Sequence record: PZ445550.1
Origin: a phage
Direction: 5' to 3' (one strand)
Length of the DNA: 64,000 nucleotides
The notes under the pieces were generated by a model. That model was not told the origin of the DNA. It saw nothing but the letters and a program-made list of their open reading frames with translations, and made no database searches. Positions 31,363-50,797 of this stretch are shown one piece after another. Made by a program: the position numbers and the translations under genes. Every line of letters begins with the position of its first letter. Within the stretch, counting starts at the first letter, position 1.

Positions 31363-31433
31363 CTAAAATTTTTATTTTTCTGCTTCGGACTTTCTTATCA
31401 ATCCGAAACTTTCTCTCTCAAATTTATGTATAT

Positions 31434-31462
31434 ATTATACATCATTTATGGGCTGTTGCCAA
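31434..31462 (-). promoter_or_regulatory. Early promoter (distal copy of a tandem pair)
   Basis: Minus strand reads TTGGCA, 17-bp spacer, TATAAT; the -35 lies in the 3' end of the helicase gene. Confidence 0.5.
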
Positions 31463-41343: not shown

Positions 41344-41373
41344 TTTACAACCCTCTCATTAATTTATATAAAT

Positions 41374-41402
41374 ATTATATAATAAAATTGGGATGAAAGC
41401 AA
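41374..41402 (-). promoter_or_regulatory. Early promoter
   Basis: Minus strand reads TTGCTT, 17-bp spacer, TATAAT. Confidence 0.55.
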
Positions 41403-43585: not shown

Positions 43586-43626
43586 ATTTAAACTCCTCTC
43601 TCAAATTTATGAATCTATTATACAGA

Positions 43627-43655: not shown

Positions 43656-43896
43656 ACGATTCCTTGAGCAAAGAAGCAAGTTCAGCATAGACTTTATCTA
43701 ACTCAAAGCCGATGCGAAGAGACACGTTAGTTTTCCGTTGTTTAAGTAACCACTCGGATATGTTAGGGATACCAGCTAATCTATGTGGTACCACCCTACA
43801 TAGCTTTTCCGAAGTATCGTAAACAGGAACTTTACGCTCTTTTACTGGAAACTTCCTTGTTTCCCATTTTTTATTCTTCGCTGTCATTCCTAGCAC
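43654..43896 (-). CDS. Hypothetical early protein
   Basis: 80-aa ORF overlapping the 3' end of the large helicase gene. Confidence 0.35.
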   Translation of the reverse strand: MLGMTAKNKKWETRKFPVKERKVPVYDTSEKLCRVVPHRLAGIPNISEWLLKQRKTNVSLRIGFELDKVYAELASLLKES

Positions 43897-46738
43897 CTAA
43901 CTCTGCCATTGCTTCATCATGCATATGTTTCTCCTCATCGGTCATAAACTTATAAGGAATTGGCATACACTCGATTTTACAATAGGTTCTGTACCAGTCT
44001 ATAATATTCTCCGTGTTCATATCCTTACCAATACCCATCATACCAAGATACATTCTCGCATATTTTGGGTTAGCACTCTGACCTGTTTTAAGAAAGAAAT
44101 CTTTTTTCTTACCTTTCAGAGCTTCTATGAAGGGTTTGATAGTGACATTTGAACACTTCTTAATATCTTCCCAAAACATCTCGTGCATTTTATGAAAGAA
44201 TGCAGCTCGATCATTTGGTTTATCTTTGATATACTGCTCAACATGCTCTACTGTTACGTCTTTAATAGACTCAAGATGGTAGTAGCGAACAAGGAGTAGT
44301 TTAGCTTCATATGCATCCGCATGGCGTGGAGCACAGTAATCAGGGGTTGAGTGCAGGATAGCTTTAATTCGCTCTTCTGTATATTCTTTACCCGCACCTT
44401 CAATAGTTCCCCAGCTTTCACTGAAAATATCAATAGTTGCTCCCTGATCTAGCAGATAATAACGTAAAGTACTGGTATAATTCCTAGATTCAAGCTCCCT
44501 ACGACGTGCGTATAATTGTTGGGCTAATTCTAACCAACCTTCATCAATATTATACTGTTCAGAACCTGCTGAGAATCCACTAGTGGATTTATCTATAAAA
44601 TAATAGATATTCTGAGCACCACGGTCGCGCCTAATTGCTTGAAAACGCATGTTTGGTGCTTGGTTACTAGTTCTAGTAATAACGAATACGTTATCAAAAT
44701 AATTAAAGTCAACCCCACTCGTTACTGATGGACTACATAATAAACAATCAATCTGTTGATCAATTAGCTCATTAGTTGTGTAATCCAGAATACGTCTAAT
44801 ATCCACATCAGACGTAGAGTTTGAGTGGATTTCCTTAACTAACGCACCAGTATTACGACGCAGTGCCATACCTTTTTCGTTAAGTTCATCAGGCCCACAA
44901 TCAGATACTAGAATTGATTTCTCACCCATCTCTAAAGATGTTTGAAGTGCAACCCAAATACTGGATTCATCGGGAAACTCATACGCATGAGCCTTTGATA
45001 GCATTTTACGGTGATGGTTATAAAATGCTACTGGTTTATCAAAATCAATAAGAGAACCATAAGCTTCAATCGTCTCAGCACTAATATCGCCATCCGATAA
45101 TATTACAGTTTTAGCTGTCATGAGAATATCACGAAGAACCTGAATACACTCACGGCGTTGTTTAACAACTGGAGCGAACAGCAGATCATTCATTACAGCG
45201 TCGCATTCATCAATAAAAATGGTGTCTATTTGACCAATGAAACTCTTAAATTTGTGCAAAGAATGGATAGTTGTAGACATACGATCAATAGCGCCGCGCT
45301 TAAAATTAAGCATATCAACTGATTTATCATACTGTCCCGCACTAAACTTTTTGGCATTTGAGGATACAAGTGCTCTAGTATTTGTAACTGCCAAAAAATT
45401 TCCTGGAAGAACGCCAGCATCAAGCCATTTAGTTACTGCCGTAGTTTTACCCGTACCAAGACTTGCCTTAACAAATGTTATATGATTTTTTGGAGGCACA
45501 ATGTTAATCTTCAGATATGGGACTTCTGGGGGAGAATCAGTATCTAGACGTTTTAATGGTACACCTTTTAGATTTGGTGGAATCTCACGTTTGGAATTGT
45601 TCACAAACGCTTTAAGAGCTTGCTTACGACCATTATTAAAATAATCTTGAATATTACGACTGTTATCTTTTGTTGCAATATATTCGGATAAAGCAGGTTT
45701 AATCTCACGTTCTAACCATGCAAAATCAACACCATCCTCTAGTGCTCTGTGATAAAGCTTTGGTATAATACGTAGATACACCCCATCCTCAGCTTCTTCT
45801 AATTCGCTGATGGTTTCTTCTACTTTATCAGATGCGATCTTTTTACCTTTAATTTGGTCAAGTAAAGAATAGAACTCTTCCTTAAACTCCCCTCTAGTTG
45901 TTTCATAGTCAACTAGATTATTAGGCAGATTTATTTTCGAACCTTTAACATACACTAGACGTGGTTTATTCTCCGCTTTAAACGGATCAACTATACCATC
46001 ATTAAATAAAGGATCAGCAAAATAGTGAAGCTGTACAGAAGAGTAATAAGCTAAGTCGGCAATATCAAAGCCATACTTTTGTTTACTACTGTCATTGATA
46101 GATGTAAATAAGAACTTTAATTGCCCTTGTGTTACCTTAACATTAGATTCTAGTATTAAGTGCATTCGGATACCTGGTTTTAGTCCAGCCGAAGACGATG
46201 CATGAGCAATAAACCCTGCATCAAGAGGAAACATATCCTCACTAATACTATTCAACATCTTAATAATATGCCGCGCCATACCAACAAGATTAAACTTGTC
46301 ATAGCCACCAGTATCTATAATACCATCCACATCCATAGCGACTATATGGCTAGGGTTGGAAACATTAAAGTTACCTCGGATACGACGAACATTATCTTTT
46401 GGAGCTAAACATTTACCACGAATAGCTACAATATGCGGATCCCTTGTGAGACGACGCATAATAGGCAACATTTCAGCAAGATTCTGTGGGTCAAGTTCTT
46501 CAAGTACATCAAATTTGAAGGGCATGGAAGCTGGTTTACCTTCTGGATGCTCTTTAGAGAATCTCTTTGCAAAGGTATAATCTTCCGCTTTGATCTCTTT
46601 CCAGATACCTGTGGCTTTATCTCTGGAAAATCCTGCATGACCTTGTAGGATTGAGAACACAACAGTACTCCTATGTTGGTTATTCGGATATTTTTCTCTA
46701 GGACTATTCAGAAAGAATAGAACAACTATTACTACCAT
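43871..46738 (-). CDS. Large SF2-type ATPase/helicase, putative replication origin-binding protein
   Basis: Walker A SLGTGKTT, Walker B IFIDECD, helicase C motifs; N-terminal start uncertain. Confidence 0.6.
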   Translation of the reverse strand: MVVIVVLFFLNSPREKYPNNQHRSTVVFSILQGHAGFSRDKATGIWKEIKAEDYTFAKRFSKEHPEGKPASMPFKFDVLEELDPQNLAEMLPIMRRLTRDPHIVAIRGKCLAPKDNVRRIRGNFNVSNPSHIVAMDVDGIIDTGGYDKFNLVGMARHIIKMLNSISEDMFPLDAGFIAHASSSAGLKPGIRMHLILESNVKVTQGQLKFLFTSINDSSKQKYGFDIADLAYYSSVQLHYFADPLFNDGIVDPFKAENKPRLVYVKGSKINLPNNLVDYETTRGEFKEEFYSLLDQIKGKKIASDKVEETISELEEAEDGVYLRIIPKLYHRALEDGVDFAWLEREIKPALSEYIATKDNSRNIQDYFNNGRKQALKAFVNNSKREIPPNLKGVPLKRLDTDSPPEVPYLKINIVPPKNHITFVKASLGTGKTTAVTKWLDAGVLPGNFLAVTNTRALVSSNAKKFSAGQYDKSVDMLNFKRGAIDRMSTTIHSLHKFKSFIGQIDTIFIDECDAVMNDLLFAPVVKQRRECIQVLRDILMTAKTVILSDGDISAETIEAYGSLIDFDKPVAFYNHHRKMLSKAHAYEFPDESSIWVALQTSLEMGEKSILVSDCGPDELNEKGMALRRNTGALVKEIHSNSTSDVDIRRILDYTTNELIDQQIDCLLCSPSVTSGVDFNYFDNVFVITRTSNQAPNMRFQAIRRDRGAQNIYYFIDKSTSGFSAGSEQYNIDEGWLELAQQLYARRRELESRNYTSTLRYYLLDQGATIDIFSESWGTIEGAGKEYTEERIKAILHSTPDYCAPRHADAYEAKLLLVRYYHLESIKDVTVEHVEQYIKDKPNDRAAFFHKMHEMFWEDIKKCSNVTIKPFIEALKGKKKDFFLKTGQSANPKYARMYLGMMGIGKDMNTENIIDWYRTYCKIECMPIPYKFMTDEEKHMHDEAMAELGARNDSEE

Positions 46739-47158
46739 CTATACAAAACATTAATTATCATCAAGCAGTATGAATAAGTTATCATACCTCAGTGCTACAC
46801 TCTCTTAACTCTTATCCAGACCAGAACCTAGGTCATTGGCCGCTAAGCCGATTCTGATTGCCCTCACTATCCTATTGGTAGGTGGCTACTGGACGTGTCA
46901 CCATTCGCTGCTCTTTTCGTTCGCACCCCCATATAAAGCTCTGCCTATATAACGAGCTAAATATGCACGGTTTGGATTTACCTTTCCGAATTCAGGGTAT
47001 GCAGATCACTTAATTGATAATTAACTAATGTAGTATAAACACTAGTAATAGTTAAAACAACCCTTAATGGGGCAGCCTAACTGTTCCGTATCGCGGATTG
47101 TAAACAAGAAAAATTAGCAAAATCAATTTTTACTAATGTCTCTCACTTCAATATAAAT

Positions 47159-47187
47159 ATTATATCAAGATTTTGAGCATCGTGCAA
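47159..47187 (-). promoter_or_regulatory. Early promoter with about 400-nt leader
   Basis: Minus strand reads TTGCAC, 17-bp spacer, TATAAT. Confidence 0.5.
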
Positions 47188-47227
47188 CAAAAATTTTAAA
47201 GATGGTGCTATCAGTGTCTTTGAGCAC

Positions 47228-47256
47228 AGTGAAAACCGAGTCATTTTGACTCGGTA
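47228..47256 (-). terminator. Rho-independent terminator ending the Sir2 operon
   Basis: Minus-strand hairpin ACCGAGTCA-AAA-TGACTCGGT followed by TTTTCAC. Confidence 0.6.
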
Positions 47257-47278
47257 ATCAGTATTGGGCTAAGGAAAA

Positions 47279-47677
47279 TCAATTATCATTCAGACCTGGG
47301 ATGTAAATCCCAATGCGATTTAATTGATCTTTAGCTTCTTCAAGAATATCTTCGGTGTATTCCCAAATATCATCTTCTACTTGCAAAAGATAATGGGATT
47401 CTCCAGTTTCTGGGTCACGCGTAATAGCTAAACCACGTGGATGGAATACAGAGAAATTAAGGGCAACAATCAACCCCATACCTGATAATTCATTCCAGTC
47501 GGCTTCCCACCCATCCATCTCATCTTCATCTACAAAGATTCCAGTACTGGAATCTGTTATATCCATAAAGGGAAATACTACACTAACTTTCTCAGCTCCA
47601 AGCCAGCGTGCGAGCAATCCTTCAGCACGCTCCACTAAACTAGGATCGATCTGACGCCAATATACTTGTTCCATCAT
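47279..47677 (-). CDS. Hypothetical protein, paralog A
   Basis: 132 aa; shares GMGL(I/V)(V/F)ALN and C-terminal G(I/Y)(Y/Q)IPGL motifs with the adjacent ORF. Confidence 0.5.
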   Translation of the reverse strand: MMEQVYWRQIDPSLVERAEGLLARWLGAEKVSVVFPFMDITDSSTGIFVDEDEMDGWEADWNELSGMGLIVALNFSVFHPRGLAITRDPETGESHYLLQVEDDIWEYTEDILEEAKDQLNRIGIYIPGLNDN

Positions 47678-47683
47678 GCCTCC

Positions 47684-48112
47684 TTAGGCAGTTAAACCCG
47701 GAATTTGATAACCAAAACGGCGAAGTTTTTGGATACCCTCATTTACTTCTTCTGGTGAATAAGACCAACCATACTGTTCATTAACCTGAAAACCAGGAGA
47801 TTCACTAGTCTTATAGTTAATTACAATTCGATGCTTAACAGGCATAAATAGTTTATAGTTTAATGCAAAGACTAACCCCATTTCATCTAACTCTTTCCAG
47901 CCAATAATCTCCTCCACACCATCCTCTAGTTGTACTACTAGTCCCATGCATGAAGTTTCTTCTATATCATCCTTAAATGCAAAAGAAATATCATTATTTT
48001 CACACCAAACCTTTAAGGAGTTAATAGCTTCATTATACAAGTTATTAGGAAGAGTTCGCCAAAAATTGACCAGTACCGGATTAGTTTCCTTAAAAAATAC
48101 ATTATTAAACAT
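47684..48112 (-). CDS. Hypothetical protein, paralog B
   Basis: 142 aa; tandem paralog of 47279-47677. Confidence 0.5.
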   Translation of the reverse strand: MFNNVFFKETNPVLVNFWRTLPNNLYNEAINSLKVWCENNDISFAFKDDIEETSCMGLVVQLEDGVEEIIGWKELDEMGLVFALNYKLFMPVKHRIVINYKTSESPGFQVNEQYGWSYSPEEVNEGIQKLRRFGYQIPGLTA

Positions 48113-50740: not shown

Positions 50741-50768
50741 ATCTTTCTCCTCTCAAATTTATAGATCT

Positions 50769-50797
50769 ATTATACATAAATTTTTGGCTGAAAGCAA
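50769..50797 (-). promoter_or_regulatory. Strong early promoter, T5 P_N25-like, driving the Sir2 operon
   Basis: Minus strand: TTTATTTGCTTTCAG...TATAATAGATCTATAAATTTGAGAGGAG; TTGCTT, 17-bp spacer, TATAAT. Confidence 0.65.

Follow-up and report, generated by a model that had tools for sequence, protein, structure and literature searches.

An uncatalogued, conserved structured RNA precedes the D2 helicase gene of T5-like phages

What is the role of several hundred base pairs that encode no protein yet stand directly before a gene whose product presumably initiates replication in a classic model phage? The question is posed by a T5-like coliphage (sequence record PZ445550.1), of which we analyzed a stretch of 64,000 nucleotides (nt), referred to here as the window. 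The gene concerned is the equivalent of T5 D2 (T5.108), which encodes a UL9-like superfamily 2 (SF2) helicase usually annotated as a "replication origin binding protein." A preliminary description of this DNA had offered a structured regulatory leader, a small RNA, or a replication origin as candidate functions for the gap upstream of it. We find that the structured RNA in this gap is real and conserved, has so far not been catalogued, and is restricted to T5-like phages within the Demerecviridae. This RNA belongs among the large structured leader or noncoding RNAs and is probably a new control or replication RNA. All positions are those of the window, and leader nucleotides are counted from an inferred start site near 47152 on the minus strand, which is the direction of the genes in this region. 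Between 46600 and 47400, the window matches Escherichia phage KookSpook at 100% identity and T5 at 88%, and ~533 phage records have a match to the region.

The stretch from 46739 to 47278 had been reported as free of open reading frames (ORFs), and this holds. Neither strand carries an ORF of at least 60 amino acids (aa), the largest being 43, 38, and 33 aa, and the gap is one of only two in the window with at least 500 bp lacking an ORF of at least 80 aa. The boundary toward D2, however, has to be moved. The 955-aa ORF at 43871 to 46738 corresponds to D2, but the start that had been assumed for it, ATG 46738, is not conserved, and T5 has stop codons in the extension; the mechanical ORF call simply lengthens D2 by 26 codons (46661 to 46738, minus strand). 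The conserved start is GTG 46660. The arrangement AGGAG, 7 nt, and then GTG or ATG is kept at this position in all relatives, and the short form (the equivalent of GTG 46660) is annotated in T5, Stitch, and Lindwurm, while the long form is annotated in KookSpook and S114. Wong et al., whose study describes the biochemistry of D2, cloned the gene from that GTG (PMC3632103; cloning primers). The D2 gene thus spans 43871 to 46660 on the minus strand, and since it starts at GTG 46660, the true noncoding gap is 46661 to 47278, or 618 bp. Its ribosome binding site (46658 to 46672, minus strand) consists of the Shine-Dalgarno (SD) sequence AGGAG (46672 to 46668), the 7-nt spacer, and GTG (46660 to 46658), in agreement with the T5 and Stitch annotations.

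We next consider how the gap is transcribed. A promoter aimed at the helicase gene had been placed at 47159 to 47187, and its identity is clear: TTGCAC and TATAAT are separated by 17 nt, with the TG of an extended −10 element, and the site coincides with promoters annotated in T5 (AY543070) and in S114. The complete sigma-70 promoter (47159 to 47199, minus strand) comprises an A/T-rich upstream run, the −35 element TTGCAC (47187 to 47182), a spacer ending in TG (47167 to 47166), and the −10 element TATAAT (47164 to 47159), and it is nearly invariant in all relatives. Judged by promoter spacing, transcription would start near 47152. Together with the TGAGAG that follows, the upstream run, the TTGC-type −35 element, the 17-nt TG spacer, and TATAAT are the marks of the T5 early promoter class, all of which are present at D2.

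The same cassette, TATAAT-N10-12-TGAGAG, occurs five times in the window, always on the minus strand, where 0.36 occurrences would be expected by chance. The five cassettes lie at 31415 to 31439, 41353 to 41379, 43598 to 43622, 47140 to 47164, and 50750 to 50774, and each follows TTGC(a/t)(t/c) and 17 nt ending in TG. At the other four, GAGAG(GAG) doubles as the SD sequence of a gene that starts 25 to 35 nt past the start site; the D2 promoter alone has a long leader behind it. Between the folded core of this leader and D2, the window contains no terminator and a single promoter-like site (46808 to 46781), a 9/12 match at chance level. The D2 mRNA of the window would therefore carry the leader. 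No plus-strand (antisense) promoter-like site is present within 46661 to 47278. The promoter cassette, the T5 annotation, and the sense-strand G·U pairs described below all suggest that the gap is transcribed from the early-class promoter as a leader running into the D2 start codon (46661 to 47152, minus strand; ~492 nt). A long untranslated leader had been proposed before; the untranslated stretch stands, and its length is corrected from ~400 to ~490 nt.

To assess conservation, we compared 33 IMG/VR loci with D2 homologs plus further GenBank phages. The leader measures 481 to 494 nt in 29 of the relatives fetched. Between the window and T5, it is 91% identical overall and 99% identical across nt 1 to 98, compared with 88% for D2 DNA and 64% for the four-fold degenerate sites of D2. 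The leader is conserved above the local neutral rate and is under strong selection. Sequence conservation among relatives, on which the preliminary description had made its reading depend, is thus evident from the 91% in the leader against the 64% at four-fold sites. The relatives include a second core type: in these type B phages, whose D2 protein is 92% identical, nt 1 to 98 remain 99% identical, and core nt 131 to 400 are only 40% identical to those of type A. Despite this divergence, type B keeps the leader length, the fold, and two invariant islands, GAACAGTnnGGCTGC and GCTTAGCGGC, which lie 238 to 242 nt apart in every relative.

Longer gaps stem from natural inserts, and these lie outside the helices. 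One is an optional insert of 97 nt at leader nt ~47 (L018, L033, and L025), within the linker that joins the 5' hairpin to island 1. The insert has TTTTTCTT on both flanks and a hairpin of its own, is always single-copy, and occurs in 51 GenBank phage records, in type A and type B backgrounds alike. Another is an HNH homing-endonuclease gene with its own promoter, which sits between the DUF7415 gene and the leader at four loci (L022, L032, L034, and L011; upstream of locus position ~2010). In L022, this insert takes the place of the native promoter, and the leader is retained beginning with GAGAGAC; L032 carries a duplication of the first ~45 nt of the leader. Metagenomes added no new leader types, yielding the eight known types and one chance match in an unrelated gene (L075), and an IMG/VR pattern scan returned the same contigs as the protein-based scan.

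Covariation provides evidence for an RNA fold. A divergent alignment (A2) of four type B leaders, DU_PP_V, My1, and one Klebsiella phage gave an RNAalifold structure of 91 pairs. In this structure, 90% of alignment cells are paired, compared with 39 to 49% when the partners are slid against each other, and double changes occur in 44 pairs, compared with 13 to 18 in slid and 18.9 ± 3 in shuffled controls. As the A2 structure was derived from the very alignment that scores it, which favors it, we also used a second alignment (A3) of 16 type A leaders, in which the alignment is unambiguous. Across its 151 pairs, 99.9% of cells are paired, and only 3 cells are broken. Seven pairs show fully compensatory double changes, compared with zero or one among slid pairs, and each of the 14 one-sided changes proceeds via G·U. 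Three compensated versions of one helix occur (CUGCAU:GUGUAG, CUGCGU:GCGCAG, and CUGUGU:GCACAG), and the compensatory changes span helices up to 330 nt apart.

The pairs also reveal the strand on which the constraint acts. Of the 151 A3 pairs, 23 are G·U; read from the opposite strand, these would become C·A, which places the constraint on the transcribed sense strand. Of the functions initially considered, "structured leader" is the right reading, in that secondary structure is kept with compensatory changes. Taken together, pairing maintained beyond slid and shuffled controls and conservation above the neutral rate identify a conserved structured RNA, and we are highly confident that the leader is an RNA structure under selection.

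The stability of the fold agrees with this conclusion in several lineages. The minimum free energy (MFE) of the sense-strand leader is −137.7 kcal/mol (z = −4.0), compared with −112.5 kcal/mol for the antisense strand, and z is −3.1 for a type B leader (L023) and −4.7 for Pectobacterium phage DU_PP_V. Excess stability is not universal, as z is only −1.4 in Klebsiella, −1.6 in Providencia, and −0.4 in Vibrio (Ceto) phages. When folded independently by MFE, the type A, type B, and DU_PP_V leaders arrive at the same plan with different sequences: a 5' hairpin (nt 1 to 56), a closing helix (~nt 99 to 120 with 409 to 430), a core of ~290 to 330 nt, and a 3' hairpin (CUAUUC/GAAUAG).

The 5' hairpin H1 (47097 to 47152, minus strand) has an A/U-rich stem of 21 to 24 bp with a 1×1 interruption, followed by a U-run (z = −3.8), and it is 99% identical across types A and B. 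Hairpins of the same shape but different sequence occur in DU_PP_V, Klebsiella, and Providencia phages (z = −4.0 to −5.8), so that four lineages share 6 to 7 bp, a 1×1 loop, 10 to 11 bp, and a loop of 4 to 5 nt. With its U-run, H1 resembles a weak terminator, and it is called a terminator in the Stitch annotation. Downstream of it, island 1, GAACAGTTAGGCTGC (47072 to 47086, minus strand), forms a small hairpin (CAGU/GCUG) and is invariant in types A and B, DU_PP_V, My1, and the Klebsiella phages. Its GGCUGC could pair with GCGGCC of island 2, as it does in the Klebsiella MFE fold.

The core domain (46723 to 47054, minus strand; ~330 nt) contains at least 12 helices. It is bounded by a closing helix of at least 20 bp (20 to 32 bp; 47054 to 47035 with 46742 to 46723), which corresponds to inverted repeat I1, and continues with 47031 to 47014 paired to 46764 to 46747 and 47010 to 46988 paired to 46811 to 46791. 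Within it lies the island-2 module (46820 to 46858, minus strand), composed of an outer helix (46858 to 46850 with 46828 to 46820), the hairpin GGCUUAGCGGCC (46849 to 46838) with a UAGC loop, and a 9-nt 3' bulge. The CUUAGCGG of this module is invariant in nine lineages. MAFFT had set the module out of register, so lineages were folded one by one, and six of the eight folded separately, including Providencia and Proteus phages, show the same topology with unrelated helix sequences and a bulge of 5 to 9 nt. The hairpin stem itself covaries, as GGCU:GGCC in T5, GACU:GGUC in My1, and GCCU:GGGU in Stubb. Beyond the core, a conserved 3' element, GTTCTATTCTT (46704 to 46723, minus strand), forms the CUAUUC/GAAUAG hairpin (z = −5.6) and is shared by types A and B, and the UCCU that follows it (46703 to 46700) is predicted to pair with the SD sequence.

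We searched for known classes that might account for this RNA. Covariance-model searches of the window and eight variant loci gave no Rfam 15 match at the gathering score; at an E value of up to 10, only spurious small nucleolar RNA and microRNA matches appeared. ARAGORN detected no tRNA or transfer-messenger RNA in the whole window. No ORF of at least 15 aa is conserved in position or frame among types A and B, DU_PP_V, My1, and the Klebsiella phages, and the small ORFs annotated as genes in KookSpook were rejected because they are not conserved across lineages. The leader is single-copy in the window, where searches for second copies or trans-complementary targets returned only chance matches of 10 to 14 nt, and it has no homolog in Escherichia coli genomes or plasmids. 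We found no published description of it in the literature, and the T5 record marks only the promoter and a terminator.

What, then, does the leader do? We tentatively favor, at somewhat less than even confidence, a primary job in cis, on the synthesis of D2. In such a model, the 5' hairpin and its U-run would set transcript survival or early termination, and the folded core would place CU-rich segments and nt 59 to 65 against the SD sequence, the spacer, and the GUG, so that initiation on D2 would depend on the fold. The fold may in turn be read by a phage protein, for which D2 itself is the obvious candidate, as in the autogenous control of T4 genes 32 and 43. In the type A consensus fold, UCCU is predicted to pair with the AGGA of the SD sequence and nt 59 to 65 (47094 to 47088) with the SD-GUG spacer. 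In the predicted DU_PP_V fold, the SD sequence pairs with the homolog of the conserved CU-rich element; the pairing partner differs between lineages. The mean probability that the ribosome binding site is unpaired is 0.24 to 0.45, which amounts to moderate occlusion in all lineages.

Known autogenous translational operators, such as the T4 gene 32 pseudoknot, the T4/RB69 gene 43 operator, and the RegA sites, are elements of ~20 to 40 nt. Like these operators, the leader is a cis RNA element in the 5' untranslated region (UTR) of a replication gene, where it overlaps or touches the ribosome binding site (here by prediction), and in both cases the encoded nucleic-acid-binding protein could plausibly exert control. 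Unlike them, it is ~490 nt long with a multi-helix core of ~330 nt, and it shares no sequence similarity with them. A second precedent for a cis-acting phage leader is the put element of HK022, which has ~70 nt and two stems. As with put RNA, conserved stem-loops directly follow an early phage promoter, with leader nt 1 to 98 almost invariant. Nothing ties the leader to antitermination, however, and its operon is short, with D2 and one small ORF before the next promoter at 43622.

Several observations weigh against control of D2 in cis. The core, with its dozen or more helices, exceeds known translational operators in size by an order of magnitude, and predicted occlusion of the ribosome binding site is only moderate. 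The occluding pairs themselves (UCCU:AGGA and nt 59 to 65 with the spacer) never vary and so receive no support from covariation. Nucleotides 1 to 98 are more conserved than structure alone requires, and a core identity of 40% between phages whose D2 proteins share 92% identity is unexpected for a sensor of a conserved ligand. Finally, Proteus phage Stubb (L069) has perfect 12/12 sigma-70 promoters at 1005 to 1033 and at 1735 to 1764. The first precedes a ~700-nt ORF-poor region, and the second lies 20 nt before the D2 SD sequence and overlaps a GTTCTAT element that is conserved in T5-like leaders. As this second promoter lies between the structured region and the SD sequence, D2 of Stubb need not carry the leader.

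The leading alternative, although we consider it unlikely, is that the region makes a stand-alone, stable noncoding RNA (ncRNA). The closing helix would then be a processing stalk, cut for example by host RNase III, and the core would be released to act in trans, leaving the D2 mRNA with a short leader. Precedents for RNase III stalks are those that release rRNA and the sites in T7 early mRNA, and both the closing helix and the 5' hairpin (~22 bp) are long enough for the enzyme. The separate D2 promoter of Stubb, downstream of the region, would fit this model, as would a core that evolves fast yet keeps its fold, which is expected in an arms race. In size, complexity, and invariant loops (UAGC and AGUUGCCACCCC), the leader resembles large ornate ncRNAs; like GOLLD, ROOL, OLE, and HEARO, it exceeds 300 nt, has many helices, and is associated with phages. 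It differs from these in matching no Rfam model (spurious hits aside) even at an E value of 10 or less, in sitting in a 5' UTR, and in its confinement to the Demerecviridae. Against a released RNA stand the lack of an Rfam family match, of a terminator or 3' end signal past the core, and, within the window, of both a convincing D2-proximal promoter and a trans target recognizable by complementarity.

Somewhat more doubtful still is a role in replication initiation, in which an R-loop or primer would arise as the very A/T-rich first 50 nt are transcribed from the strong promoter, and the folded RNA or its template would recruit D2 to a D2-dependent origin. R-loops or primers of this sort are known from T4 oriF and oriG, the T7 primary origin, and ColE1 RNA II. 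As at these origins, a strong promoter is followed by a transcript of several hundred nucleotides beside replication functions; the fold matters for ColE1 RNA II, and an A/T-rich stretch comes right after the promoter at the T4 R-loop origins. Here, the lowest regional GC content (0.23) is found just downstream of the promoter, in a stretch that is 99% conserved. The region lies at 48 to 49% of the T5 genome and adjoins the gene for a UL9-like initiator helicase throughout the family. In contrast to ColE1 RNA II, the leader has no convergent antisense promoter and no known RNase H or primer site. In contrast to the ColE1, T4, and T7 origins generally, its transcript continues into an ORF with a good SD sequence, and its core has a balanced GC content and a structure in place of an unwinding element. 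That balance had been noted before and is confirmed, with a GC content of 0.49 to 0.50 at 46800 to 46949 compared with 0.23 to 0.36 in the flanks. A replication origin was the last of the functions first suggested, but iterons or other marks of a classical duplex-DNA origin, of the iteron or DnaA type, are absent here; direct repeats in the region are limited to short two-copy pairs at chance level.

The relationship of D2 to herpesvirus proteins bears on the same question. D2 matches Pfam Herpes_ori_bp, PHROG 3712, and herpesvirus origin-binding proteins in the PDB, and it shares its helicase core with UL9. The exact core of the herpes simplex virus (HSV) UL9 box, the 9-mer CGTTCGCAC, occurs once in the 64-kb window, inside the leader core (46918 to 46926, plus strand), which is reminiscent of box I of HSV oriS. 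Unlike in oriS, the 9-mer is neither repeated nor palindromically arranged. It is also restricted to type A, being absent from type B, DU_PP_V, My1, and the Klebsiella phages, and no counterpart of the UL9 DNA-binding domain was detected among the Pfam and PDB matches of D2.

A switch of leader core type goes along with changes in the N-terminal 550 residues of D2, which would suit control of D2 in cis as well as a D2-dependent origin. The fixed differences between type A and type B D2 proteins, 41 in number, all fall within residues 1 to 550 (46660 to ~45010), with 13 of them in residues 351 to 400 and none in the C-terminal 380 residues. This pattern would reflect either a shared recombination block or coevolution with the leader core. 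Two further points argue against an origin. Selection acts on sense-strand pairing, including G·U, which is not a property of duplex DNA. In addition, recombitron editing has one and the same strand bias along T5, which is interpreted as replication that proceeds mainly in one direction from one end (PMC10055335), and these data argue against a dominant central origin.

The covariation makes it very improbable that the region, instead of acting as RNA, is duplex DNA bound by a protein, a decayed gene, or a miniature mobile element bounded by inverted repeats. In favor of such readings, the invariant islands are short imperfect palindromes to which a protein could bind, the core has an inverted repeat on its flanks, and some annotators call small ORFs here. 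Against them, compensatory changes link distant helices with every one-sided change passing via G·U, and no ORF is conserved between lineages. The element also occurs only once in the window, is missing from E. coli genomes and plasmids, and keeps a fixed position upstream of D2 in all relatives, which led us to reject the mobile element.

A long ORF-poor stretch behind a strong promoter precedes D2 homologs throughout the Demerecviridae, which favors a link of the leader to D2. In Vibrio phages, a strong promoter and 700 to 800 ORF-poor nt lie before the D2 homolog; we do not claim homology with these leaders, as Ceto shows no excess stability. Vibrio phage vB_ValS_X1 (L072, 1181 to 1405) has a 42-nt direct repeat upstream of its D2 homolog, in two copies that are 93% identical and 147 nt apart. 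Among GenBank records, MG065692 (H2) and MG065642 (H6), named Campylobacter phages C13 and A148, are 99% and 95% identical to the region, and their Campylobacter host label is probably wrong.

On its upstream side, the gap is bordered by a gene for a DUF7415 protein (47279 to 47677, minus strand). A paralogous DUF7415 gene (47684 to 48112, minus strand) adjoins it, the two being ~33% identical, and both precede the terminator. The proximal gene is only 66 to 70% identical to its T5 homolog, far less conserved than the adjoining noncoding leader. The intrinsic terminator of this operon (47231 to 47253, minus strand) reads CCGAGTC-AAAAT-GACTCGG and then TTTT, folds at −16.9 kcal/mol (z = −6.6), and is annotated in T5 and Lindwurm. 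Its stem covaries, as GACCAAGTC/GACTTGGTC in DU_PP_V and GACCAGAGG/CCTCTGGTC in Klebsiella phages.

Bacteria and phages rarely have structured RNAs longer than ~300 nt, and every new class of them has been informative. Hundreds of sequenced phages of Salmonella, E. coli, and Klebsiella that are candidates for therapy carry this leader; their annotations leave the space empty or fill it with spurious small ORFs. The interest of the leader lies in its place before the presumed replication initiator of T5, a founding model phage. The mutable features of the leader, namely, the closing helix, the UAGC hairpin, and the two natural core types, make both D2 regulation and the T5 origin directly testable. 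It is possible, although we would not call it likely, that the leader represents a new class of large ornate RNA, specific to T5-like phages, that mainly serves something other than ordinary translational control. The RNA may instead be a component of replication initiation (a primer, an R-loop, or a scaffold for loading D2) or a processed trans-acting RNA, coevolving in a type-specific manner with D2 residues 1 to 550. If so, it would provide the first molecular handle on how T5 DNA replication starts.

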